From Acidiferrobacterales bacterium (GTDB taxonomy: Bacteria; Pseudomonadota; Gammaproteobacteria; Acidiferrobacterales; SPGG2): 64,000 nucleotides of DNA. The stretch covers positions 3,197 to 67,196 of the forward strand of contig JBHIDJ010000006.1 in the NCBI GenBank assembly GCA_046760105.1, read 5' to 3'. Shown here in pieces: positions 1,578 to 49,360 of this stretch; the first letter of the stretch is position 1; the number at the start of each line of letters is the position of its first letter. The translations under genes were made by a program, and so were the position numbers. The notes below the pieces were generated by a model. That model did not search any database, had not been told where the DNA came from, and saw only the letters and a program-made list of their open reading frames with translations.

Positions 1578-1961
1578 ATGATAGATCGCGGAAAATATAG
1601 CATGGATGTTTCCGTGCAAATTGCCTATCTGCCGGAGCACTCGGCGCCCGAGCAAAACCGCTACGTGTTTCGCTATACCATAACCATCGCCAACACTGGC
1701 ACGGTGCCTGCGCGGCTGCTAACACGCCACTGGATCATTACAGACGCCAACGAGAAGGTTCAGGAAGTGCGCGGAGAAGGCGTCGTGGGCCATCAGCCCT
1801 ATCTCGCGACAGGCATGACCTTCGAGTACAGGAGCGGCACCGTGATCGAGACCCCGGTGGGGACCATGCGCGGCAGCTACCAGATGGTCGCGGCTGATGG
1901 AGCGACCTTTGACGCGGAGATACCCGAGTTCGTGTTAAGCATGCCGCGCACATTGCATTAA
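1578..1961 (+). CDS. apaG: ApaG (DUF525) protein
   Basis: VSVQIAYLPEHSAPEQNRYVFRYTITIANTG...LLTRHWIITDANEKVQEVRGEGVVGHQP is the typical ApaG core. The start may be the internal ATG at 1602. Confidence 0.88.
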   Translation: MIDRGKYSMDVSVQIAYLPEHSAPEQNRYVFRYTITIANTGTVPARLLTRHWIITDANEKVQEVRGEGVVGHQPYLATGMTFEYRSGTVIETPVGTMRGSYQMVAADGATFDAEIPEFVLSMPRTLH

Positions 1962-1970
1962 TCTCGAGAG

Positions 1971-2063
1971 TCGTGAACCGTTAACCGTGAGTCGGAAAGC
2001 GTAAAGCGTGTAGATTGCGCGTCGTCGACTTGCCCCTCACGACTAACGATTAACGACTAACGA
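1971..2063. repeat. heptamer-array inverted-repeat element, TCGTGAA/..TAACGA family, copy 1
   Basis: 93 nt stay in one 7-nt register: tcgtgaa ccgttaa ccgtgag tcggaaa gcgtaaa gcgtgta gattgcg cgtcgtc gacttgc ccctcac gactaac gattaac gactaac ga. The first six units are xCGTxAx and the last four are their reverse-complement type. The element starts 10 nt after the apaG stop and ends flush with the gyrB stop (2064). Confidence 0.85.
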
Positions 2064-4502
<2,439 letters not shown>

Positions 4503-6853: not shown

Positions 6854-7087
6854 TCATATTACAAAAGGTTTTTATATATTTTATAGTAACTACAATTAGT
6901 GCTGTTGATATGTCTATAAAGCTAGCTATGCATTATCAGGCAAGGCGACCCGGCATTGAAAGCCTGTGAACAAGCTTGTGTTTACACAGTGTGTTTCCTG
7001 TGACAGAGGCCGGGTGGGGTTTGTATGACTATGGGACAATTGTCATTATGCACAGGGAATCTACAGGGCTGTGTTCTGATCTAGTTG
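6854..7087. promoter_or_regulatory. dnaA-dnaN spacer: AT-rich tract plus DnaA-box-like 9-mers (dnaN promoter and/or oriC candidate)
   Basis: AT-rich stretch at about 6850-6935 (ttacaaaaggtttttatatattttatagtaactacaattag). TTATGCACA (7046-7054) fits the relaxed box TTWTNCACA. TGTGAACAA (6965-6973) has 2 mismatches to TGTGGATAA. Confidence 0.3.
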
Positions 7088-8425: not shown

Positions 8426-8607
8426 GGGCGTTGTTCTGTTAGTTGTGGGGGGGCGAGAGTCTATCGCCAAACTCGTGTGCAATCTACATGTCGAAAGCTA
8501 CTCTAATGGATACAAGCATTTGCGTTTGTCAGTAGTTGACAAACCTGCGTTCAAGGCATTAACGTTGCGCCCCGCTTGCAGTAAGGAAGCGTTTAAGACC
8601 GGCACCG

Positions 8608-8742
8608 ATGAAAAGAACGTATCAACCAAGCGTTTTAAAACGCAAACGCAACCACGGGTTTCGGGCGCGCATGCGCACAGCGGGCGGTCGTGCAGTGCTT
8701 AATGCGCGTCGCGCGAAGCGCCGCTCACGCCTGAGCGCCTAA
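8608..8742 (+). CDS. rpmH: 50S ribosomal protein L34
   Basis: Absent from the ORF track because it is 44 aa. ATG 8608 gives [44 protein letters not shown], with stop TAA at 8740-8742. Canonical position upstream of rnpA. Confidence 0.95.
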
Positions 8743-8754
8743 CCTTTTTGGCAC

Positions 8755-9123
8755 GTGCCGGCGCGCGCCCGCGAAGGGCTACCCAAATCATATCGTCTGC
8801 TGCAGCCGTCGGCGTTCACATCCGTGCTGCGTCGTGGCTGTAAAAAGCGCGATGGTTATTTTACTGTGCTTGTGGTGCGGAACACGCTGGCACATCTACG
8901 CGTAGGCTTAGTGGTATCGCGTAAGGTGTCGTCGAGGGCGGTCGTGCGTAACAGGATCAAACGTCAAATACGCGAATCGGTTCGTCACCATCAGCCAGAG
9001 CTGAAAGGCCTTGATCTCGTCGTTATCGCCCAGCCGCAAGCGGCACGTGCGGAAGCTTCTGCGCTGCGGGCATCGCTTCGGCAGCACTGGATCAGTATCA
9101 TAGAAAAATGCGGCAAGCCCTAA
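8755..9123 (+). CDS. rnpA: ribonuclease P protein component
   Basis: [17 protein letters not shown]...[28 protein letters not shown] (RNase P protein RNR motif). GTG start, exact start uncertain. Confidence 0.9.
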
Positions 9124-9356
9124 TACGCATCGTGCGCGGCTATCGCTATTTTATCAGCCCACTACTGGGGCCACGCTGCCGCTTCTATCCGACATGTTCC
9201 GAGTATGCGCTGACCGCCATCGAGGCGCACGGGGTGTGCAAAGGTGTGCGGCTTGCGTGCTGGCGCCTGCTGCGTTGCCACCCCTGGCACTCGGGGGGCT
9301 ACGATCCTGTGCCTGCAGGCACGTCGTGCAACGAACACAAGGCAGGCCATGGATAA
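9108..9356 (+). CDS. yidD: membrane protein insertion efficiency factor YidD
   Basis: [58 protein letters not shown] is the full YidD signature. Overlaps the rnpA end and the yidC start. Confidence 0.92.
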
Positions 9357-11019: not shown

Positions 11020-12383
11020 AATCCGCTTTGCCGATTCCCGCACGCGACACCATTGCTGCCGTCGCCACGCCGCCGGGGCGTGGCGGCATCGCGATCGTGC
11101 GCGTGTCCGGGCCCGCAGTGCGTGCCGTCGCCGAGGGGCTCGTCGGCCAGCTGCCGCGCCCGCGCTACGCGGTTTATGGTGCATTCGAGGATGCCTGCAA
11201 GCGCCCGATCGACAAGGGCATTGCATTGTTCTTTCCGGCGCCCGGTTCCTTCACCGGCGAGGACGTGCTGGAGCTCCACGGCCATGGTGGTCCGGTGGTC
11301 ATGGACATGCTGCTCAAACGCGTGCTGCAGCTCGGGGCCCGCATGGCACGTGCAGGCGAGTTTTCCGAACGCGCGTTTTTAAACGGCAAGCTCGACCTGA
11401 CGCAGGCTGAAGCCGTCGCCGATCTTATCGAAAGCAGCTCCGAAAGCGCGGCACGTTCCGCGTTGCGTTCGCTCGAAGGGCAATTCTCCAGGCGCGTGCA
11501 TGCGATCGTCGAGCAGCTTATCGAACTGCGCACCTATGTCGAGGCATCGATCGATTTTCCTGAAGAGGAGATCGACTTTTTGTCCGATCACAAGCTGTCG
11601 CGCGATCTCGTGGCAATACTGCAGGGGCTCGATGATCTACTTGAGTCGGCGCGCCAGGGCTGCTTGCTGCATGACGGTATGACGATCGTGTTGGCGGGCC
11701 CACCTAATGCCGGCAAGTCCAGCCTGCTGAATCGGCTCGCACAACACGATGCAGCGATTGTCAGCCGCACACCGGGCACGACCCGGGATGTCCTGCGCGA
11801 ACGCATCCAAATAGACGGCATGCCGGTACATGTATTGGACACCGCGGGTCTGCGCGATTCCACCGGTGAAATCGAAACCGAGGGCGTACGCCGCGCACGC
11901 GCCGCGATGGAACACGCCGACCGGGTGTTGCTCGTGATCGATGACGACATCGCGGATGAAAGCTCGGTGCAAACGCTCATACAGCAGCTTCCGCAGCCGG
12001 TGACCTATACATTGATCCGCAACAAGATCGACCTCAGTGGCCGCCCGCCGGGCGAGTGTGACAACACCGCTCAGACAGAGCTCGCACTGTCAGCCAAGAC
12101 CGGGGTTGGCCTCGACGACTTGCGCCAACATATGAAAAAGACGATGGGATTTCAGGACGCCGGCGAAGGGACGTTTATCGCCCGGCGCCGGCACCTGGAC
12201 GCACTTGCGCGTGCGCGCCGGCATGTACGGGCGGGGCAGGAGCAGCTAGAGCACGCACGCGCCGGCGAGTTGGCGGCCGAGGAGTTGCGCCTCGCCCAGC
12301 AAGCGCTTAACGAGATCACTGGTGAGTTCACCACCGAGGATCTGCTCGGCCGCATCTTCGCGAGTTTTTGTGTTGGCAAGTGA
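10980..12383 (+). CDS. mnmE: tRNA modification GTPase MnmE
   Basis: DTIAAVATPPGRGGIAIVRVSG, GPPNAGKSSLLN (G1), DTAGLR (G3), C-terminal FCVGK. GTG 10980 overlaps yidC by 40 nt; TTG 11028, just after the yidC stop, is an alternative start. Confidence 0.93.
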   Translation: MADHTHDRGQGKIESALPIPARDTIAAVATPPGRGGIAIVRVSGPAVRAVAEGLVGQLPRPRYAVYGAFEDACKRPIDKGIALFFPAPGSFTGEDVLELHGHGGPVVMDMLLKRVLQLGARMARAGEFSERAFLNGKLDLTQAEAVADLIESSSESAARSALRSLEGQFSRRVHAIVEQLIELRTYVEASIDFPEEEIDFLSDHKLSRDLVAILQGLDDLLESARQGCLLHDGMTIVLAGPPNAGKSSLLNRLAQHDAAIVSRTPGTTRDVLRERIQIDGMPVHVLDTAGLRDSTGEIETEGVRRARAAMEHADRVLLVIDDDIADESSVQTLIQQLPQPVTYTLIRNKIDLSGRPPGECDNTAQTELALSAKTGVGLDDLRQHMKKTMGFQDAGEGTFIARRRHLDALARARRHVRAGQEQLEHARAGELAAEELRLAQQALNEITGEFTTEDLLGRIFASFCVGK

Positions 12384-16266: not shown

Positions 16267-16444
16267 GTGCGTGAGGCTGCAGTGTGGGTTCGGCCGCAAG
16301 GCCTAAATATCTACCTACTTTATAGTCAATGACAACCTGGGTGTCACAGAGATCCACCCCTCGTTCGGTGGCGCATACATACCTAGCCGCTTGGCGATGG
16401 TGCTATGATGCGCGCCGGCAACCCGTTTGCGCTATGCATTAACC

Positions 16445-18319
16445 ATGTTTTATCCAGAACCCTATGACATCATCATCATCGGCGGCGGTCACGCCGGTAC
16501 CGAAGCGGCCGCCGCCGCGGCTCGCATGGGCTGTAAAACCTTGCTGCTTACGCACAACATCGAAACCATTGGGCAGATGTCTTGCAACCCGGCGATTGGC
16601 GGGATCGGCAAGGGACATCTGGTGAAGGAAATCGATGCCATGGGTGGGATTATGGCACGTGCGACCGATCGCGCCGGCATCCATTTTCGGGTGTTGAACG
16701 CGCGTAAGGGAGCGGCGGTCCGCGCCACGCGTGCGCAGGCGGATCGCGTATTGTACAAGGTCGCGGCGCGCAGCCTGCTGGAAGACCAGCCCAACCTGAC
16801 TCTGTTTCAGCAAGCAGCTGATGATCTCGTGGTCGAAGGCGATGAGGTCCGTGGTGTGCTAACGCAGATGGGCTTGGCCTTTCGCGCCCGCGCCGTCGTG
16901 TTGACCACCGGTACCTTCCTCGGCGGACGCATCCATATTGGTCTGTCCAACTATCAGGGCGGGCGCGCCGGTGATCCGCCGGCAAACGCATTGGCGGCGC
17001 GGTTGCGCGAGCTGCCGTTACACGTGGGTCGCCTTAAGACCGGTACACCGCCTCGCATTGACGGCAAAACGATTAACTACGCGCTCATGGAAGAACAACC
17101 AGGCGACACGCCAACGCCTGTATTCTCGTATCTGGGCTCCGCCGCTGAACACCCGCCGCAGGTGCTGTGCCACATCACCCACACGAACGCGCACACGCAT
17201 GAAATTATTCGTGCAGGTCTTGATCGCTCCCCGATGTACACCGGCGTCATCGACGGTGTCGGCCCGCGCTATTGCCCGTCGATCGAAGACAAGGTTGTGC
17301 GCTTTGCCGACAAGCACTCGCATCAGATCTTCGTCGAGCCGGAAGGCCTGAACACGAGCGAGATCTATCCAAACGGCATCTCCACCAGTTTGCCGTTCGA
17401 CGTACAGTGGCAGCTGGTGCGTTCGATCAAGGGGTTCGAGCACGCCACCACCACGCGCCCAGGTTACGCCATCGAGTACGACTATTTCGACCCGCGCGGC
17501 CTGAAACCCACGCTGGAGACTAAAGTAATCACGGGCCTTTTCTTCGCCGGTCAGATCAACGGGACCACGGGTTACGAAGAAGCGGCAGCGCAGGGGCTTG
17601 TCGCCGGCATCAACGCCGCGCGGCACGTGCAGGGACGCGAGCCGTGGTGGCCGCGGCGTGACCAGGCCTACATGGGGGTGCTCATCGACGACCTTATTAC
17701 CCGCGGTACGGATGAGCCCTATCGCATGTTCACCTCGCGCGCCGAGTACCGCCTGCTACTTCGTGAAGACAATGCCGATCTGCGCTTGACCGAAATCGCA
17801 CACCGCCTGGGATTGCTGGATGATCTCCGCTGGGCACGGTTTTGCGCCAAGCGTGATACGATCGAGGCAGAACGCGAGCGCCTCGCTAGCAGCTGGGTGC
17901 GTCCGGAAGAGATCTCGCGCGAGCAAGCCATCAAGGCCCTCGGGCAGCCACTAACCCGGGCGTGCACCGCGTTCGACCTGCTGCGCCGCCCGGAGCTGAG
18001 CTATGAGGCAATTGCTGGCCTGCTGGATGAAGGCGCGGTCGTTAGCGATCGCGCCGTCACCCAGCAGCTGGAGATTATGGCCAAGTACTCCGGGTACATC
18101 GAGCGGCAGGCGCGAGAGATCGAGAGCCATAGCAAGCACGAGAACACCGCATTGCCAACACAGTTGGATTACGGAGCGGTGCGCGGGCTTTCGGTCGAGG
18201 TCCAGCAGAAACTCAACGCGCACAGGCCGGCGACCCTGGGTCAGGCATCGCGGATCTCTGGCGTGACCCCGGCGGCGATCTCATTGTTGCTCGTGCATCT
18301 CAAGCGCAAACGCGCCTAA
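16445..18319 (+). CDS. mnmG: tRNA uridine 5-carboxymethylaminomethyl modification enzyme MnmG (GidA)
   Basis: [22 protein letters not shown]..., [33 protein letters not shown]. Start set to ATG 16445. Confidence 0.97.
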
Positions 18320-18320
18320 A

Positions 18321-18416
18321 CTCGTTAACTGTAAATCGTTAGTCGTGAAGCGAGACTACGGCGCTGGCGTAACGCCGCACAATTTACACCTCACGGATCA
18401 CGACTAACGGTTTTAA
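18321..18416. repeat. heptamer-array inverted-repeat element, TCGTGAA/..TAACGA family, copy 2
   Basis: Left units are ctcgtta actgtaa atcgtta gtcgtga agcgaga. Right units are cctcacg gatcacg actaacg. A perfect 12-bp inverted repeat pairs cgttagtcgtga (18337-18348) with tcacgactaacg (18398-18409). Shares the 11-mer cacgactaacg with copy 1. Begins 2 nt after the mnmG stop. Confidence 0.8.
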
Positions 18417-18591
18417 CCCACGGCGGGGTCAAGGTGTTGAACAGGCCGCACTACGGCGTTGACGGTTTCGTAGGCGATCGAGCCCGACTGACCGTCGGGC
18501 GCCGCCATCAAGTCGCGACTAGTTACACCCTGGTGGTCAGGGTGTGGTTATGACGTGCCTTGTAGCAATCGCTTGTCGGCAGCGGTACGCA

Positions 18592-18630
18592 CAAAAAAAG
18601 AACCAGCGCGGATGGTGCCCGCGCTGGTTC
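18592..18630 (-). terminator. rho-independent terminator of the DUF2914 gene
   Basis: Perfect 11-bp stem GAACCAGCGCG (18600-18610) with CGCGCTGGTTC (18620-18630) and a 9-nt loop. Followed on the minus strand by a U-run (A-run 18592-18599 on plus). Confidence 0.8.
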
Positions 18631-18656
18631 TGATTCTCAGAAACAAAATCAAGCTA

Positions 18657-19160
18657 CTATTGGCTGCCGCTCTCGCCTGTTGACATGCCCTGTTCAACCG
18701 AGCCGGTGACCGCGCCCGTGTAGAGGAACGTGGTTACGCTCAGCGGGCTGCCAGATGAATCGACCACCGAGACTTTCCAGTCACCCAACCACATCGGTTC
18801 CAGATTCTTGCTCGAGTAGACCCGCCAACGTGCCCCGCCTATATGAAACGGGATCTCGGCCATGACTTGGCCGTTGTATTCCCAACGGTGCATGATCGTC
18901 TCGCCCGCCATATCGCGAATTTCGGTAAAATAGTAGATCTTGGAGTTGTCATTGCTCAGGGTCGTAATCGAGTCGATCGGCTCGCGGTCCTGGACGCCGC
19001 TCGTAACGGTCGCGCGGGCAACCCATCCAGCGCTCGGGGCAGTCGTAGTCGCTACCTCGGTCGCGGCAGCGCTCGGGTCCGAGTCCGCAGTGGTAGCCAG
19101 GGCGCTCTGCAGCGGAGCTGCGGTCAGTGTGGCGATTATCGCAATGCTTGCAAACCTCAT
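18657..19160 (-). CDS. secreted DUF2914 domain protein
   Basis: Start ATG 19160 preceded by GGAGGAAACC. Signal peptide MRFASIAIIATLTAAPLQSALA. Core is IYYFTEIRDMAGETIMHRWEYNGQVMAEIPFHIGGARWRVYSSKNL...GDWKVSVVD. Confidence 0.75.
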   Translation of the reverse strand: MRFASIAIIATLTAAPLQSALATTADSDPSAAATEVATTTAPSAGWVARATVTSGVQDREPIDSITTLSNDNSKIYYFTEIRDMAGETIMHRWEYNGQVMAEIPFHIGGARWRVYSSKNLEPMWLGDWKVSVVDSSGSPLSVTTFLYTGAVTGSVEQGMSTGESGSQ

Positions 19161-19384
19161 GGTTTCCTCCTTACGAAAAACATCAATTGCAGTATGCCAG
19201 GCACCCCCGGCCGATGCGCCGGGATGGCACGATACGTTATTCACTGTAGACTCGCGGTCGAGGCCACGACACCATAACCGGACGAAGGGACGAAAACCCT
19301 GGACCAACCGCAAACTAGCAGCGACGGCCATTCATCCAGGACCCAACAGCGCTTACACTTCTGTGCCCCGAAAGGAGACCCTAC

Positions 19385-27869: not shown

Positions 27870-27870
27870 A

Positions 27871-27967
27871 AGTCTAGTTGCAAGTAGCAAGTGGCAAGCG
27901 ACAAGGAGCAGGCCAGGAACAGGGACCATGTCCGGTTTTTCTTGCTACTTGAAACTTGCTACTCGCT
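27871..27967. repeat. heptamer-array inverted-repeat element, GCAAGTA/CTTGCTA family, copy 1 (atpG-atpD spacer)
   Basis: Left units are ttgcaag tagcaag tggcaag cgacaag gagcagg. Right units are tcttgct acttgaa acttgct actcgct. A perfect 11-bp inverted repeat pairs caagtagcaag (27881-27891) with cttgctacttg (27941-27951). Starts 2 nt after the atpG stop and ends 3 nt before the atpD SD AAGGAGG. Confidence 0.85.
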
Positions 27968-27971
27968 GTAA

Positions 27972-29356
<1,385 letters not shown>

Positions 29357-29357
<1 letters not shown>

Positions 29358-29449
29358 AAAGCAGTAGCAAGCGCCAAGTAGCAAGTGACAAGTGAAACAC
29401 CCAAATTTGGTTTTCTTGCTACTTCACAGTTGAAACTTGAGACTTAGTT
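29357..29449. repeat. heptamer-array inverted-repeat element, GCAAGTA/CTTGCTA family, copy 2 (atpD-atpC spacer)
   Basis: Left units are gtagcaa gcgccaa gtagcaa gtgacaa gtgaaac. The centre holds the 10-bp palindrome ccaaatttgg. Right units are ttcttgc tacttca cagttga aacttga gacttag. Inverted repeat aagtagcaag (29376-29385) with cttgctactt (29415-29424). Fills the spacer from the atpD stop to the atpC ATG. Confidence 0.85.
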
Positions 29450-30199: not shown

Positions 30200-31570
30200 A
30201 TGACGCTAGAGGCTATTATTCTCGCCGCGGGCCAGGGCACACGCATGTATTCGGATACCCCCAAGGTATTGCATGATCTGGGCGGCAAACCGTTGCTTGT
30301 TCACGTGCTCAATACCGCCGCGAGCCTCGAAGCGCAAACCATTCATGTCGTGTATGGTCATGGGGGCGAACGTGTACGCGACTGTGTAGAGGGCAACGAC
30401 TTAAACTGGGTATTGCAGGCCGAACAGAAGGGCACAGGCCATGCGCTGATACAGGCATTACGTGACGTCGCAGACGACGCCTTGGTGCTAGTGTTATACG
30501 GCGATGTGCCATTGATACAGCGCGAGACGTTGACGGCTCTCGTGAAGGCAGCCAGTGACGACAGGTTGGCACTTGTTACTGTCGAACTCGACGATCCTAC
30601 CAGTTACGGGCGAATCATCCGTGACGCTGAAGGCAGGGTAGTGAAAATCGTGGAGGAAAAGGATGCAAGCACCGATGAGCGCGCGGTACAAGAAGTCAAT
30701 GCGGGGTTCCTCGCGGCGCCGGCGGGCAGGCTCAAGTCTTGGTTAGCAAACGTGGATAACCAAAACGCGAAGGGCGAGTATTATCTAACAGACGTTATCG
30801 CAATAGCTGCCGCCAGTGGCTTCAGCATTGCTACCTGCAAACCGCGCTCGACTTGGGAAATAAGGGGTGTAAATAATAAATTGGAACTGGCACAGCTTGA
30901 GCGCGTATACCAGCAGCAACAGGCACAGGTACTGATGAAGCAAGGTGTTACACTGCGAGACCCGACGCGATTCGATCTACGTGGTCAGCTTAAAGCAGGT
31001 CGTGACGTCGTGATTGATGTCAATGTAGTGCTGGAGGGAGAAGTCGTTTTAGGCGATAGTGTGCAAATCGGACCCAATAATTTTCTACGGAGCTCATCCA
31101 TCGGCGCCGCCACCGTAATTCTCGCCAATTGCGTCATTGAGGAATCAGTTGTGGGACGCAACTGTCAGATTGGGCCGTTTGCGCGGTTACGTCCCGGACC
31201 ACAGATCGCCGATCAAGCACGCATCGGGAATTTCGTCGAGATAAAGAAATCCGAGATCGGCGAAGGCAGCAAGATCAATCACCTGAGTTACGTCGGTGAT
31301 ACGGTAGTGGGCAAGAATGTCAACATTGGTGCGGGTACCATCACCTGCAACTACGACGGCGCCAACAAGAACCAGACAATCATTGGTGACAATGTTTTTA
31401 TCGGTTCCGACGTGCAGCTGGTGGCGCCGGTAACCGTCGGTGAAGGCGCCACCATCGGCGCGGGCTCGACGATAACCAAGGACGCACCAGCGGGGCAGCT
31501 GACCCTGAGTCGTGCCGAGCAACGGACGCGAAAGGGGTGGAAAAGGCCGGTTAAGAAAAGTAAATCGTGA
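30200..31570 (+). CDS. glmU: bifunctional UDP-N-acetylglucosamine pyrophosphorylase / GlcN-1-P acetyltransferase
   Basis: ILAAGQGTRMYSDTPKVLH N-terminal NTP-transferase motif and C-terminal left-handed beta-helix hexapeptide repeats (NVNIGAGTITCNYDGANK). Confidence 0.97.
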   Translation: MTLEAIILAAGQGTRMYSDTPKVLHDLGGKPLLVHVLNTAASLEAQTIHVVYGHGGERVRDCVEGNDLNWVLQAEQKGTGHALIQALRDVADDALVLVLYGDVPLIQRETLTALVKAASDDRLALVTVELDDPTSYGRIIRDAEGRVVKIVEEKDASTDERAVQEVNAGFLAAPAGRLKSWLANVDNQNAKGEYYLTDVIAIAAASGFSIATCKPRSTWEIRGVNNKLELAQLERVYQQQQAQVLMKQGVTLRDPTRFDLRGQLKAGRDVVIDVNVVLEGEVVLGDSVQIGPNNFLRSSSIGAATVILANCVIEESVVGRNCQIGPFARLRPGPQIADQARIGNFVEIKKSEIGEGSKINHLSYVGDTVVGKNVNIGAGTITCNYDGANKNQTIIGDNVFIGSDVQLVAPVTVGEGATIGAGSTITKDAPAGQLTLSRAEQRTRKGWKRPVKKSKS

Positions 31571-31759
31571 GCCGTGTATCATGACTCGTGAAACCGTGAG
31601 TTGTGAACCGTGGATTGGGTAGCAAGGGAAGGCTCACAGTTGTGCATCAAGACGCTCCTGATTAGTTGCTTACGACTAACGAATCACGAATTACGACTCA
31701 CGACTAATGACTAACAACTCGCGAATTACGACTCACAAATCACAACTAACGACTTACGA
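31564..31759. repeat. heptamer-array inverted-repeat element, TCGTGAA/..TAACGA family, copy 3 (largest; glmU-glmS spacer)
   Basis: The right arm is 13 contiguous heptamers at 31669-31759: cttacga ctaacga atcacga attacga ctcacga ctaatga ctaacaa ctcgcga attacga ctcacaa atcacaa ctaacga cttacga. The left arm at 31564-31613 carries the complementary word: atcgtga gccgtgt atcatga ctcgtga aaccgtga gttgtga accgtgg. It spans from the glmU stop to the glmS SD. Confidence 0.9.
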
Positions 31760-31767
31760 GGTGTACT

Positions 31768-33618: not shown

Positions 33619-36600
33619 TTATTGCCAGCACTCACCCGGCGCGTTCGCTTTGCCTTTGCCCGGATCAGTCTGAGCCGGTGGCTCGCGGACGAGACCCTCG
33701 TCCTGCTCGAACCGCTTGTGTGTTCTGTAAATCTGCCGGCGTTTGTCGAACCAAGGGCGTGCCTTGGAAATTCTCCATTTTTTCTTGCCATCACGCAGTT
33801 CGACAGCCACCGACAGAGCACGGAGTTTTGCGTAGAAAACCCCCGCGACCTGGCGCTGAAAAATATCGAGTTCACCGAGAATTTTGAGCCTGTCTCCTGT
33901 CATCTCGAGATCCTCGACCTCGACCGCCTTGCCATCCATCTTGAAGTCAGCACGGGTTTTGATGTCTGTAACGGTGAGCAGATTCTTGAACCACCGGACA
34001 ATCCCCTTTTTTTCTGAAAGAAGCACGACAACGGGGCGCGAGTCACGCATTTCCATCTCAATGCGCGCCTCGAGCTGCGCCGGGGTCGTTACTTGCATTT
34101 TGGCTTGCGGCAAACTAAGACGCGCCCACCAGGTAGTATCGGTGCCGATCTTGGCAGTCCCGACGTACATGTTATTGAGTTCAAGCTTTGTGTCACCTAT
34201 GTCAAATGTGCGTGCCTTCAGGTCACCGTTCTTGAGGTGGGCATGTAGCGTCATGTCGCCCGCCATTGTCACGTTCCTGAATTGAGCCACGATCCGCTCG
34301 GCGCGGAACTCAACCTCACCCTTCGCTGACGCCTCCGTTTCGGATGCCTCAATGCGGGTTCGGATTCGACCACGGCCGGAATGTATAAAAAAGCAGGAGT
34401 CGGGCGGGACATAAGCGTTGTAGAAACCGAAGTTCGGAACGTCGGATTCTGGTAGATCCAGGACCACTTTAAGATCAGTAAACGGATCGGTGAGATCCAA
34501 TTCAGAGCTCGTACCGGTGATTTCGAAGCCGATGCCGAAAATGTGGGGTTCTACGTATTCTGACCTTCCGAGTTCGAAGTCATCCAGCGTTACCGTCACT
34601 TCCGCAAAGGCCCGATCCTTCTCGCGAGCGACGCGGCCACGTACCTTGCCCGAACCGCGCGCCTTAAAGTCGAGATAGGTGGCTCGAATCTCATCGGAGT
34701 CAACGGCCAAGCGACTACCGGCAACGAGCCTCCCTTTGCGCACGCGCAAGAAAGCATTGAGCGTTCCGGACCCATTAATATCGAGCCATGGCGCCTTACG
34801 GAAATAGGCGTTCAGGAATTGCAAGCCAGGGACACGGCCAGCCACGCGCACAGTCCCGGATATTGAACGCAATGCATCTTGGCTTTTTTGCTCAGCGAGT
34901 ACGAGGTGGTCAAATATGGAGTCAACGTTTATCGTCAGATCCTTAACGGCCTTTCCATCCCTGAGCCGTACCTCTCCCGAGGCCAACTGTAGCGAAGCTT
35001 TGCGTATAGCCAGTGGCCCTTCGGTAAGAACGATTAGACCGTCGGCGCGCTCGCCCTTATCACTCGGCCCATACTGAACATCGGTCACGACCTTCAGATT
35101 TCCCGACAGGGCGACGTCTTGGAATGCGGCGGCGACACCGGTGCCGGTTATTGCGAGGTTAGCGGTTGTGGTGGGGTGCCCTTGGGCAGTCTCAAACAGG
35201 CCGTCAAAGCGACCAGCGCCGGACCGGATGCGCAGCCCCGTCCGTGACGGAATGTAGTTATTAAGATAGCTCAGATCTGGTATGGTGCCGTCGACGCGCG
35301 CGGATGCGGACATGAAACGCGTCAAGTCGAACACCTTTTTTAGATCTAGAGTGTACTGGGCAAACTCGGACTGCAACTCTAGCGTAAAGTCTTTGGCAAT
35401 GGTTTGCTGCCGATCGCGTATCTTTCCCGAGGTGAGCGTCACCGATGCTTTCAACACTTCTAACCACCCTAGCTCGCTGAAGGCGACCAAGCCCTTATCG
35501 TCCCGCTCCTGCAACCCATATTGAAGGTCGGCACTCAACTCTAGCTCGCCGGCGACAACGAGATCTTTGAGCTCGGCCGTGACATCTTCGCCAATGAGTA
35601 CTAAGTGGCCCGTAGCATCGGGTTGCCCCGACGCCGTCTCGAAGCGGGTCTGAATTTGACCGGTACCCGAACGGATGCGTAGACCCGTCTGTGATGGGAG
35701 GTAGTCATTGAAATATGGCAGATTCGGAATCCTACCAGCGACACGCAGCGATCCAGAGGTGTAATCGAATACACTGAGCGCTTTGTGTGGATCCAGCGTG
35801 TATTGGTCAAAGGCGGATTCGAGCTCTAGCGTGAAATCCTGAGCGATGACTTGCTGTCGATCGCGTATCTTTCCGGAGGTGAGCGCGACTGAAAGCTTCG
35901 ACACTTCGAACGGCGCGTCGGAGAATACGATCAATCCGTCTTCGTCCTCTTCCAACCCGTACTCGAGGTCCGCCTTAACACTCAAATCACCGCCAATGGT
36001 GAAATGCCTGTATTGCATTACCGTACCTTGGCCTACGACCTCGATTTTACCCTCGGCCGTTCGTTCTTGCGGGGAGCTCGTAAAGCGGCTGCGCATGCGG
36101 CCGCTACCTGCACGAATGGTGATGTCCATCTCTTGCGGGATCAATGTGTTGAAAAAGCTGAGCTCCGGCACCTCGGCGTCCGGCAGGTCGACGATCAACG
36201 TTAGGTCAGTGAAAGGGTCACGTAGGTCGAGGTCGCTGCTGGTACCACTGACCTGTAATTCACGGCCAAGAGCAAAAGGTCTTTGTGCTTGCGCTTGTGC
36301 CAGCTCAAAAGTCTCTAGCGCCACGGACACTTTTGCTACGGGCTTCCCGTTCTCGAGTTCGACGCGACCCTGCACCTTACCTGGGCCCTTGGTGGTGATG
36401 GTGTAATTGGCTGCGTTAATCACGATTTCTGCCGTTTCGACGGTGACACGGGTTTCCTGCGACAGCACCCCTTTCTCCAGGTGCAGTTCAGCATCCAGCA
36501 CGCCGCTGCCATCGATATTGAGCCACGGCATTTTGCGGAAGTAGGCTTTCAAGAAGTTCAAACCTTTTACAGCTGCCGTATGGCGCACAGTTCCCGAGAC

Positions 36601-37338
36601 GAATCCCAAGGCTTTGATGCCTTTCTCTTCGCTGGGGACGAACTCATCGATCGTAATATCGGCATGCAGTTCACTGTCTTCCTCAACGACCGTGTCTCCT
36701 ATCCACCAGTTCCCTGAGGTGAGCACTACAGTTGCGCGCGGCACTTCAAGCGGTCCTCTGATGGTGTGTATCATGCTACCGCTCACGCGCCCGTCGCCAG
36801 CGAAGCGGAATTGCTCGATCCACAATGTGCGGACATCACTGATTGCGATGTTGTTCATCTCCAACGTCCACGGGGACTTACGGGTTGTCCGCGGGTACAG
36901 GTTTTCCGGGGGTGGCTGCGGTGGGTTCGAGAGCCCGGGAATAGATGGAGTTAAATCAACATATTGAGGTTTGGGCTCGTCTGGACGTAATCGCTGGCGC
37001 ATCCGGAACTCGAGCCCACGGCCGTTCATCGAATTGGCCTGGAACCGTTTCAGCAAAAGCGGGATTAAATCGATCGATGCACGAATCTCGTCGAGTTCCG
37101 CATACCACTGAAACCTTCTATCTTGTCCGCGAATCTGGAGACCTTGAACGTGAACAATGCCGGGGAACAGCGTCCAACCCTTTTCCCATCGAATCCACAA
37201 TTTCTCCGGCTTTCGGTTGATTAGTTGTGATGCTATCTCGGTATTGAGAAAAAGGTTTGCCAGCACGAGGTAAAGCCCTGTGACCACGACCACCGCGATC
37301 ACGACATGCGTTAGCCACTTTCGCAGAGATGACTTCAT
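33619..37338 (-). CDS. 1239-aa N-terminally membrane-anchored repeat protein; AsmA/TamB/YhdP-like architecture (function unassigned)
   Basis: One N-terminal TM (WLTHVVIAVVVVTGLYLVLANLF), then beta-rich sequence with internal modules. An outer pair is GTSSDLDLRDPFTDLTLIVDLPDAEVP versus GTSSELDLTDPFTDLKVVLDLPESDVP. Tandem inner modules are SGKIRDRQQVIAQDFTLELESAFDQYTLD versus SGKIRDRQQTIAKDFTLELQSEFAQYTLD. The family assignment is inferred from architecture only. Confidence 0.85.
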   Translation of the reverse strand: MKSSLRKWLTHVVIAVVVVTGLYLVLANLFLNTEIASQLINRKPEKLWIRWEKGWTLFPGIVHVQGLQIRGQDRRFQWYAELDEIRASIDLIPLLLKRFQANSMNGRGLEFRMRQRLRPDEPKPQYVDLTPSIPGLSNPPQPPPENLYPRTTRKSPWTLEMNNIAISDVRTLWIEQFRFAGDGRVSGSMIHTIRGPLEVPRATVVLTSGNWWIGDTVVEEDSELHADITIDEFVPSEEKGIKALGFVSGTVRHTAAVKGLNFLKAYFRKMPWLNIDGSGVLDAELHLEKGVLSQETRVTVETAEIVINAANYTITTKGPGKVQGRVELENGKPVAKVSVALETFELAQAQAQRPFALGRELQVSGTSSDLDLRDPFTDLTLIVDLPDAEVPELSFFNTLIPQEMDITIRAGSGRMRSRFTSSPQERTAEGKIEVVGQGTVMQYRHFTIGGDLSVKADLEYGLEEDEDGLIVFSDAPFEVSKLSVALTSGKIRDRQQVIAQDFTLELESAFDQYTLDPHKALSVFDYTSGSLRVAGRIPNLPYFNDYLPSQTGLRIRSGTGQIQTRFETASGQPDATGHLVLIGEDVTAELKDLVVAGELELSADLQYGLQERDDKGLVAFSELGWLEVLKASVTLTSGKIRDRQQTIAKDFTLELQSEFAQYTLDLKKVFDLTRFMSASARVDGTIPDLSYLNNYIPSRTGLRIRSGAGRFDGLFETAQGHPTTTANLAITGTGVAAAFQDVALSGNLKVVTDVQYGPSDKGERADGLIVLTEGPLAIRKASLQLASGEVRLRDGKAVKDLTINVDSIFDHLVLAEQKSQDALRSISGTVRVAGRVPGLQFLNAYFRKAPWLDINGSGTLNAFLRVRKGRLVAGSRLAVDSDEIRATYLDFKARGSGKVRGRVAREKDRAFAEVTVTLDDFELGRSEYVEPHIFGIGFEITGTSSELDLTDPFTDLKVVLDLPESDVPNFGFYNAYVPPDSCFFIHSGRGRIRTRIEASETEASAKGEVEFRAERIVAQFRNVTMAGDMTLHAHLKNGDLKARTFDIGDTKLELNNMYVGTAKIGTDTTWWARLSLPQAKMQVTTPAQLEARIEMEMRDSRPVVVLLSEKKGIVRWFKNLLTVTDIKTRADFKMDGKAVEVEDLEMTGDRLKILGELDIFQRQVAGVFYAKLRALSVAVELRDGKKKWRISKARPWFDKRRQIYRTHKRFEQDEGLVREPPAQTDPGKGKANAPGECWQ

Positions 37339-40955: not shown

Positions 40956-41249
40956 CACTAAGGCCTCACGGTTAACGGCAGAGACTACCTGACGAACGGC
41001 GAGCGGCGACAGCTTGGCCGATGCTGCTGCCACCGCAGTCCACCAACGTCTCTACTCGTAATATACCAGCGGCGGATGTCATGTTCCCGCGCAGCGGGAC
41101 TGCCGATTACCGGTGGGCACAATATAACACGGCGTGCGCCAAGGGTTGGGGCCCTTGTTAAACCCGTGAACCTCAAAGCACTTGAACATCAGTTTCATGC
41201 AGATTTTGTGGCGTTCACGCATGTGGTTGGTAATTGTTATTATCACGGC

Positions 41250-49237: not shown

Positions 49238-49360
49238 GGACGATCCTGGTGGATCGTCTTGCCCGCTCCTCCTCCCTGAGCGGGTAGTTCCTGGGCTTTT
49301 TCTTATGCAGGAACGGTTAGGCCCCGGGCTCTCTCCCCTTGTTTTCCGGGGCTTTTTTTT
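49238..49360 (+). ncRNA. candidate small RNA in the polA-engB spacer (Spot42/ErsA-position)
   Basis: Four consecutive hairpins. (1) gacgatcc/ggatcgtc, 49239-49258, 8 bp perfect. (2) cccgctc/gagcggg, 49262-49284, with loop CTCCTCCCT. (3) gttcctg/caggaac, 49287-49314. (4) gccccgg/ccggggc, 49321-49352, followed by T8 (49353-49360). No ORF. Confidence 0.45.

Follow-up and report, generated by a model that had tools for sequence, protein, structure and literature searches.

At one end of the 64-kb window, by which we mean the whole stretch of 64,000 nucleotides that was analysed, apaG (DUF525/ApaG, PF04379; 127 aa, positions 1578..1961, + strand) is met by gyrB (809 aa, 2064..4493, - strand), which converges on it. 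The gyrB assignment was made from the Pfam families of an orthologous contig, as were those of recF, dnaN and dnaA farther along; the window spans the dnaA-dnaN-recF-gyrB region and probably the replication origin. The coding sequence of apaG ends at 1961 and the stop codon of gyrB occupies 2064-2066, leaving a spacer of 102 nt (1962-2063).

The entire convergent spacer (1962..2063) is an imperfect inverted repeat with heptamer arrays as its arms, referred to here as E1. The inverted repeat begins 2 nt past the apaG stop codon, and the last base of its right arm directly adjoins the gyrB stop codon. The left (5') arm (1964..2012, + strand) is built of YCGTKAR-type heptamers, with four clear units at 1964-1991 followed by three degenerate ones (TCGGAAA, GCGTAAA and GCGTGTA) at 1992-2012. 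The centre, or loop (2013..2035), contains a small local hairpin and has no 7-nt periodicity (measured on 2013-2033). The right (3') arm (2036..2063, + strand) reads CTCACGA, CTAACGA, TTAACGA, CTAACGA and is of the complement type, YTMACGA. The arm segments 1964-1991 and 2036-2063, each 28 nt long, are 79% complementary. For arms of 24 nt, the earlier count of 18 matches has to be raised to 19/24, and the complementarity itself is real. Because five independent short-read assemblies contain an identical 102-nt E1, the element is not an assembly artefact.

The heptameric periodicity of the spacer was evaluated against 5000 dinucleotide-preserving shuffles at lags 2 to 29. Lag-7 identity is 0.58, compared with 0.245 (sd 0.05) in the shuffles (z 6.7), and none of the 5000 shuffles attained 0.58 at any of these lags. 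The proposed 7-nt periodicity thus survives a shuffled-sequence test. Tandem Repeats Finder places period-7 arrays at 1972-1990 and 2039-2063, and lag-7 identity is 0.66 in the left arm (1971-2012) and 0.78 in the right arm (2034-2063). The middle of the element (2013-2033) scores 0.21, which is the background level.

This last value bears on the way in which the element had been drawn. The 13 heptamers originally listed match the sequence exactly as transcribed, but the claim that they keep a single 7-nt register across 93 nt fails, since the periodicity is confined to the arms. With a central segment of about 21 nt that is aperiodic, the "13.3 units in one register" are a drawing convention. 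The description of the first six units as xCGTxAx is exact for four of them and the other two deviate, while the right-arm units can be fitted to xTxACGx, the reverse-complement pattern, only after a 2-nt shift of the frame in which they had been written. Preservation of phase through the switch in polarity had also been proposed. Two results count against it: the centre lacks periodicity, and when the two arms are cross-correlated directly, lags of 0, 5 and 6 modulo 7 give about equal values (0.36, 0.38 and 0.34, respectively), so that lag 0 is not favoured. The phase argument is in any case uninformative, because any periodic array will be "in phase" whatever frame is imposed on it, and once it fails, templated copying between the arms is left unsupported.

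E1 is not the only such element in the window. A sliding lag-7 test over the 64 kb placed all strongly periodic segments within four intergenic elements, and a fifth, weaker element (E2) lies 3' of an mnmG-like ORF; the same test at other lags returned 0-1 regions, multiples of 3 excepted. E2 (18320..18418) belongs to the unit family of E1 and starts directly after the stop codon of a 630-aa ORF (16427-18319), which we take to be mnmG-like from its size and position only. Its left arm reads ACTCGTT, AACTGTA, AATCGTT, AGTCGTG and its right arm CTCACGG, ATCACGA, CTAACGG. E3 (27870..27980) and E4 (29358..29449) fill the atpG-atpD and atpD-atpC gaps, respectively, and consist of a second unit family, AGTAGCA / TGCTACT. 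Within this family, AGTAGCA, AGTGGCA and AGCGACA units are paired with TTGCTAC and TTGAAAC units, and in both loops GGTTTT(T)CTTGCTAC comes after a small hairpin. In E3, part of the Shine-Dalgarno sequence of atpD is base-paired with the outer stem, a layout that suits translational coupling.

The fifth element, E5 (31556..31767), is again of the E1 family and occupies the glmU-glmS junction. Its left arm of about 7 units overlaps the 3' end of glmU, and its right arm, with 12.6 units of the ACGACTA type, stops 8 nt short of the glmS ATG. With arms this unequal, an A/C-rich unpaired array is left directly upstream of the glmS ribosome-binding site. In other gammaproteobacteria, the glmU-glmS junction is under small-RNA regulation. 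Gene identities around E3-E5 were taken from Pfam families. An unpaired fragment of the word family with 2-3 units (CTCACGGTTAACGG) is located at 40956..40980.

Word counts agree with this picture. The exact recurrences noted earlier at 18399-18409 and 31672-31681 are present, and ACGACTAACG occurs 5 times in the window against 0.05 expected. When up to 1 mismatch is allowed, CGTNANNCGTNANNCGTNA has 17 matches in the 64-kb window against an expectation of 0.35; all 17 are intergenic and fall in E1, E2, E5 or the short fragment (matches at 40959-40977). The census that had been suggested for this word family, made here over the window, finds further copies in the genome. Each element opens a few nucleotides from a stop codon and extends to the boundary of the gene that follows, and element ends lie 0-12 nt from gene ends both in the window and in relatives. 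The elements measure 92-212 nt and differ from one another by whole 7-nt units as well as in their loop sequences.

The best ApaG matches come from MAGs of uncultured Acidiferrobacterales and "Muproteobacteria" at 77-80% identity, and the apaG/gyrB synteny is common to these sister lineages. Their apaG/gyrB spacers hold graded numbers of units. Three loci with 78% ApaG identity (L209-L211) have a spacer of 89 nt with 3 left units (AGTGAAC, CGTGAGT, CGTGCAC) and about 4-5 right units (...ACGA, CTAACGA, CTTCACGG, GTCACGA, CTTACGA). The spacer of L002 (ApaG 80%) has 2+2 units, and that of L208 retains a 2-unit trace, only ACAACGACTTGCGA, adjoining the gyrB stop codon. L001, L008 and L212 have unrelated short, GC-rich spacers with no units. 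E1 itself counts as about 6+4 units in the same comparison. Such graded numbers at an orthologous site point to stepwise growth or decay in place and argue against insertion of a fixed element.

The idea of unit-wise slippage, as opposed to insertion of a preformed palindrome, is strengthened by these loci, since the same words occur in different numbers at the orthologous junction. It draws further support from arms that vary in length independently, both in metagenomic pairs (3 vs 13 or 9 vs 3 units) and in E5 (about 7 vs 12.6). Growth in 7-nt steps by slippage, as judged from these sequence comparisons, is thus supported. No VNTR behaviour among strains was seen in the material at hand. Exact look-up of the ApaG and GlmS products retrieved five samples (SRR29324582, 584, 595, 596, 598), and a look-up with the GyrB product gave no matches. 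Contigs of the five runs are 99.93-100% identical to the window, with identical elements; the samples represent a single population, with 1-2 SNPs per 3 kb and no element variation. This lack of length variation indicates that slippage is slow on the time scale of that population.

To place E1 in a broader setting, 80 ApaG-anchored loci (L001-L080) and a set of metagenome loci (L083-L202) were considered. Paired heptamer arrays also occur in further beta- and gammaproteobacterial MAGs among the 80 ApaG loci, where the units are of quite another kind; examples are CAGGGTT/AACCCTG, GGTTCAA, TTTTGAA, AGTGAAC and CAGTTGT. Several of these arrays lie directly after apaG in unrelated MAGs: a heptamer array or pair is found at the apaG stop codon in L022 (10381-10598), L054 (10383-10479), L077 (10377-10470) and L045 (10385-10419). 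Arrays of differing units at the apaG stop in several MAGs suggest that this is a recurrent array site. L054, from a betaproteobacterial MAG, also has a TTTTGAA / TTCAACA inverted pair at 11103-11187, whose units are those of Hept_L/Hept_R upstream of recF/recO in Nostoc PCC7120.

A metagenome scan for ACGACTAACGANTNACGA returned at least 120 contigs, with a GC content of 0.34-0.71 among the matches listed, nearly all of which fall in heptamer arrays. ACGACTA arrays were found, for example, in contigs with GC contents of 0.34 (L098), 0.66 (L189, with 11+16 units) and 0.69 (L102). An identical unit over such a range of base composition implies that ACGACTA either arises repeatedly or spreads among very different organisms. 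Among the matches listed, 42 arrays have an inverted partner within 150 nt and 91 are isolated, the search having been made for one arm only. Arm lengths in the listed pairs are uncorrelated. The isolated ACGACTA arrays listed end at a start codon or an opposite-strand stop in 57 cases, compared with 31 that begin at a gene end. Where the neighbours of a listed pair are clear, the genes are co-directional in 30 cases, convergent in 6 and divergent in 1. Gene context at the metagenome loci, for pairs and isolated arrays alike, comes from a crude custom ORF caller that left 37/82 pairs "unclear". These neighbour counts indicate transcribed 3' or intercistronic sites, not promoter regions. On one low-GC contig (L086), three near-identical copies of a pair and its flanks (67-152, 1513-1598 and 2957-3042) are 1444 nt apart, a spacing that places the element within a tandemly repeated segment.

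The two arms of a pair are not arranged at random. Among the matches listed, the TAGTCGT-type arm is the 5' one in 40/42 ACGACTA-family pairs, and a second detection method gave 41/44 (41:3; p = 1.6e-9). E1, E2 and E5 all conform. An inverted pair arranged in this way looks alike on both strands, so that the orientation is independent of the direction of transcription or replication. "G-rich arm first" was considered as a universal rule and rejected: it describes 14/15 pairs at the ApaG loci, but the ratio is 12:14 in other metagenome families. Other unit families listed have AG in the 5' arm and CT in the 3' arm in a ratio of 29:6 (70:9 overall), a marker that is exploratory, having emerged after 6 dinucleotide and 32 trinucleotide pairs had been tested.

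Folding of E1 is predicted to be strong on both strands (-37.2 kcal/mol, z -3.9, on the + strand; -40.3 kcal/mol, z -4.1, on the - strand), each giving a long interrupted stem-loop. On direct reading of the sequence, three of the five arm mismatches turn into G-U pairs on the gyrB-sense strand. Comparison of sense and antisense fold energies revealed no bias in 9 elements, and among the 30 co-directional pairs the split was 16:14, which is not significant. Nothing here thus points positively to selection on one of the two RNA strands, and a DNA-level structure or a neutral repeat would account for the symmetry just as well. Searched against Rfam 15 at the gathering score, E1-E5 gave no match. 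The only match in the window was anti-hemB (RF02837, Burkholderia RNA 7; 49260-49360, + strand; 52.3 bits vs a gathering score of 49.5), which lies in a spacer between convergent genes; the end of this spacer is a T-rich tail resembling a terminator.

The first-pass annotation had suggested a bidirectional terminator at E1, and the features of an intrinsic one are missing there. A terminator scan of 1500-2600 found no terminator-like site, and no T-run or A-run accompanies the E1 stem, whose flanks are ...ATTAATCTCGAGAG and TCAAATGTCGAGG. The organism does use the canonical hairpin+T7 design: an intrinsic terminator with a 14-bp stem and T7 is present at 18599-18631 (- strand), downstream of the gene at 18657-19331. 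An A-run is found on the opposite side of this terminator, which is 180 nt from E2 in the same convergent spacer. The terminator reading of E1 is further unsupported because elements of the same architecture sit within the atp operon and at glmU-glmS, where read-through is expected.

Comparison with described systems assigns E1 to the class of intergenic heptameric repeat arrays. It has head-to-tail 7-nt units beyond chance expectation; it is non-coding, near ORF ends and accompanied by four more such loci in 64 kb; its two convergent arrays form an inverted repeat (28 nt, 79%); and unit number varies between related genomes at the orthologous locus. The Mrazek 2007 survey, as cited in PMC4679880 and PMC4692102, reported that among long simple-sequence repeats heptamers are the commonest kind in many bacteria, and polymerase slippage was put forward to explain them. 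The nearest relatives of E1 are the paired arrays of Xanthomonas, where X. campestris and X. axonopodis carry 70-75 convergent GGGAATC array pairs per genome (Rehm et al. 2015, PMC4692102). The Xanthomonas arrays differ in length between species with their type (single or paired) preserved, are mostly transcribed and depleted between divergent genes, and have no known function despite dedicated studies (PMC4692102). Both they and E1 consist of non-coding 7-nt tandem units in close, opposite-strand arrays beside ORF ends. Unlike the Xanthomonas unit, that of E1 (YCGTKAR / YTMACGA) is not G-rich; its arrays are more degenerate, and it comes from an uncultured gammaproteobacterium of Acidiferrobacterales-like kind, as judged by the MAGs that give the best ApaG matches. 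Membership of the G-quadruplex-forming GGGNATC subclass was rejected, as TCGTGAA, CCGTTAA and CTAACGA lack a G-tract (at least 3 required). These units cannot form a G-quadruplex, and the G4 rationale is therefore inapplicable to E1.

Other heptamer systems share some of these features. TAACTGA direct repeats (2 to >40 copies) lie just upstream of start codons in marine Beggiatoaceae, cyanobacteria and Bacteroidetes (MacGregor 2015, PMC4679880). They are likewise intergenic and phylogenetically scattered, with a similar unit (TAACGAC here), and the right arm of E5 resembles them in being A/C-rich and just upstream of a start codon. E1 was nonetheless not assigned to them: the unit here is TAACGAC/TTAACGA, and E1 has a stop codon on either side and no start codon in its vicinity. 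The BOGUAY TAACTGA arrays include one inverted pair among 170 sets, the rest being nearly all single direct arrays (PMC4679880). The cyanobacterial STRR heptanucleotide repeats (Calothrix/Nostoc), as cited in PMC4692102, are mostly unpaired, and for the TTTTGAA/TTCAAAA repeats of Nostoc an unidentified heptamer-binding partner has been inferred (bioRxiv 10.1101/2022.06.06.494920). These too are tandem intergenic heptamers with several unit families per genome, although the phylum and the units differ. Geobacter metallireducens has GGACCGG x4 and MTYCTGA x5 (mostly in pairs), annotated as putative regulatory sites only (PMC2700814). These dispersed sets of 4-5 tandem heptamers, some drawn as strand-switching pairs, differ from E1 in their fixed copy number (4 or 5), in their near-identical copies and in the location of some of them within genes. 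A search of the literature for literal ACGACTA-array strings found no paper containing them.

In position, E1 is also like the REP/BIME sequences of E. coli, which are dispersed imperfect palindromes in 3' UTRs or between cistrons, transcribed and without a U-tract. REP/BIME sequences stabilise the upstream mRNA. An E. coli REP, however, is a single palindrome of 20-40 nt, RAYT-mobilised and lacking internal 7-nt periodicity. Membership of REP/BIME was rejected, as the arms of E1 are tandem 7-mers and the copies vary in unit number and loop; a MITE was rejected as well, there being no flanking direct repeat at 1962/2063 and the element lengths (92-212 nt) differing by unit arrays.

We consider it somewhat probable that E1 belongs to a genome-wide class of paired heptamer arrays that grow by slippage, and that it serves as a passive 3'-end hairpin and not as a terminator. 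Under this proposal, the starting point would have been a short seed that the ancestor shared by this lineage and its sisters already had, and replication slippage would let each arm gain and lose 7-nt units independently of the other. The transcripts of apaG and gyrB would both enter E1 and fold into a long imperfect stem-loop just past their stop codons. The hairpin may then act as a passive 3'-end structure, both a barrier to 3'-to-5' exonucleases and a definer of the transcript end. The predicted RNA 3'-end hairpin role for these two transcripts is plausible. At co-directional junctions, an element would link the nucleotides after the stop codon with those just before the next ribosome-binding site; there, this linkage could also tune translational coupling.

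The alternative with the next best standing, though we regard it as unlikely, is that slippage-prone arrays are merely tolerated between genes and that the hairpin is a harmless, functionless by-product. This would suit a class for which dedicated studies have found no function (PMC4692102), folding without strand preference, absence of the element from the syntenic relatives L001, L008 and L212, and units that are degenerate in arms of unequal length. Neutrality sits less well with an orientation far from random (41:3 among the matches listed for the ACGACTA family) and with frequent pairing (42 pairs vs 91 isolated arrays among the matches listed, with one arm searched). It also fails to predict that lineages whose ApaG identity is only 78-80% keep the same words at the apaG/gyrB junction, or that divergent, promoter-bearing spacers are depleted. 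A further reading is that a protein recognises the 7-nt unit on RNA or DNA, with inverted pairing modulating its access. Candidates for such a periodic binding platform would be S1, cold-shock or CsrA-like proteins on RNA, as proposed for TAACTGA, and nucleoid- or gyrase-type proteins on DNA, as with REP/BIME. Consistent with it are the presence of one unit in at least 120 contigs from metagenomes, whose GC content ranges from 0.34 to 0.71, the fixed orientation together with the AG (5' arm)/CT (3' arm) signature across families (29:6 among the matches listed), and the tendency of isolated ACGACTA arrays to end at a start codon or opposite-strand stop (57 vs 31 among the matches listed). Binders of this kind were proposed by MacGregor (PMC4679880), and the Nostoc work inferred a heptamer-binding partner (bioRxiv 10.1101/2022.06.06.494920). 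Nevertheless, two distinct unit families coexist in the window, the units are degenerate and E1 has no adjacent start codon, which makes the platform improbable as an account of E1.

Two further readings carry less weight. A bidirectional transcription terminator for apaG and gyrB, which we rate as quite improbable, would fit the convergent position of the genes, the strong stem-loop on both strands and the lack of any other terminator-like site in 1500-2600. The stem, however, is long and interrupted, its base is not GC-rich and it is followed by a T-run on neither strand; canonical hairpin+T7 terminators occur elsewhere in the genome, and the atp and glmUS operons have sister elements within them. 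Very improbable, finally, is a mobile repeat, either a RAYT-mobilised REP or a MITE inserted into the spacer. In its favour are the multiple dispersed intergenic copies with inverted-repeat structure and, in the second unit family, GTAG/GTGG motifs reminiscent of REP heads. Against this, the copies are unlike in length and sequence, differing by whole 7-nt units; no target-site duplication is seen at 1962/2063; each arm is a tandem array and not a palindromic unit of 20-40 nt; and orthologous junctions show graded unit numbers where presence or absence of a fixed insert would be expected.

The favoured combination of slippage and a passive 3'-end hairpin does not account for the orientation rule, the loose end of the analysis that interests us most. 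One speculative answer, to which we give little credence, is that a conserved trans-acting machinery writes or reads the arrays and that E1 would be its site and not passive slippage debris. Such a machinery could be a repeat-adding or repair activity on 3' ends (the pairs look as if two arrays had been built outward-in, starting at a break), or a widespread heptamer-specific nucleic-acid-binding protein.

The class as such is familiar from the STRR work, from the survey of Mrazek 2007 and from the Xanthomonas and Beggiatoaceae papers of 2015. What this locus adds is an uncultured Acidiferrobacterales-like lineage that carries the class with a non-G-rich unit, which weakens the G-quadruplex explanation proposed for Xanthomonas. 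Handles on function are offered by the orientation rule, the depletion from divergent spacers, the lack of a sense-strand folding bias, the occurrence of the same unit across GC contents, and a unit number that is stable within a population and variable between lineages.

Other features of the window include a 1239-aa ORF (33619-37338, - strand) directly downstream of glmS and convergent with it, which has no Pfam family in the Logan gene calls. In the putative origin region, an AT-rich stretch lies between dnaN and dnaA (6854-7087), and a gap of 761 nt is found upstream of dnaA (8483-9243).
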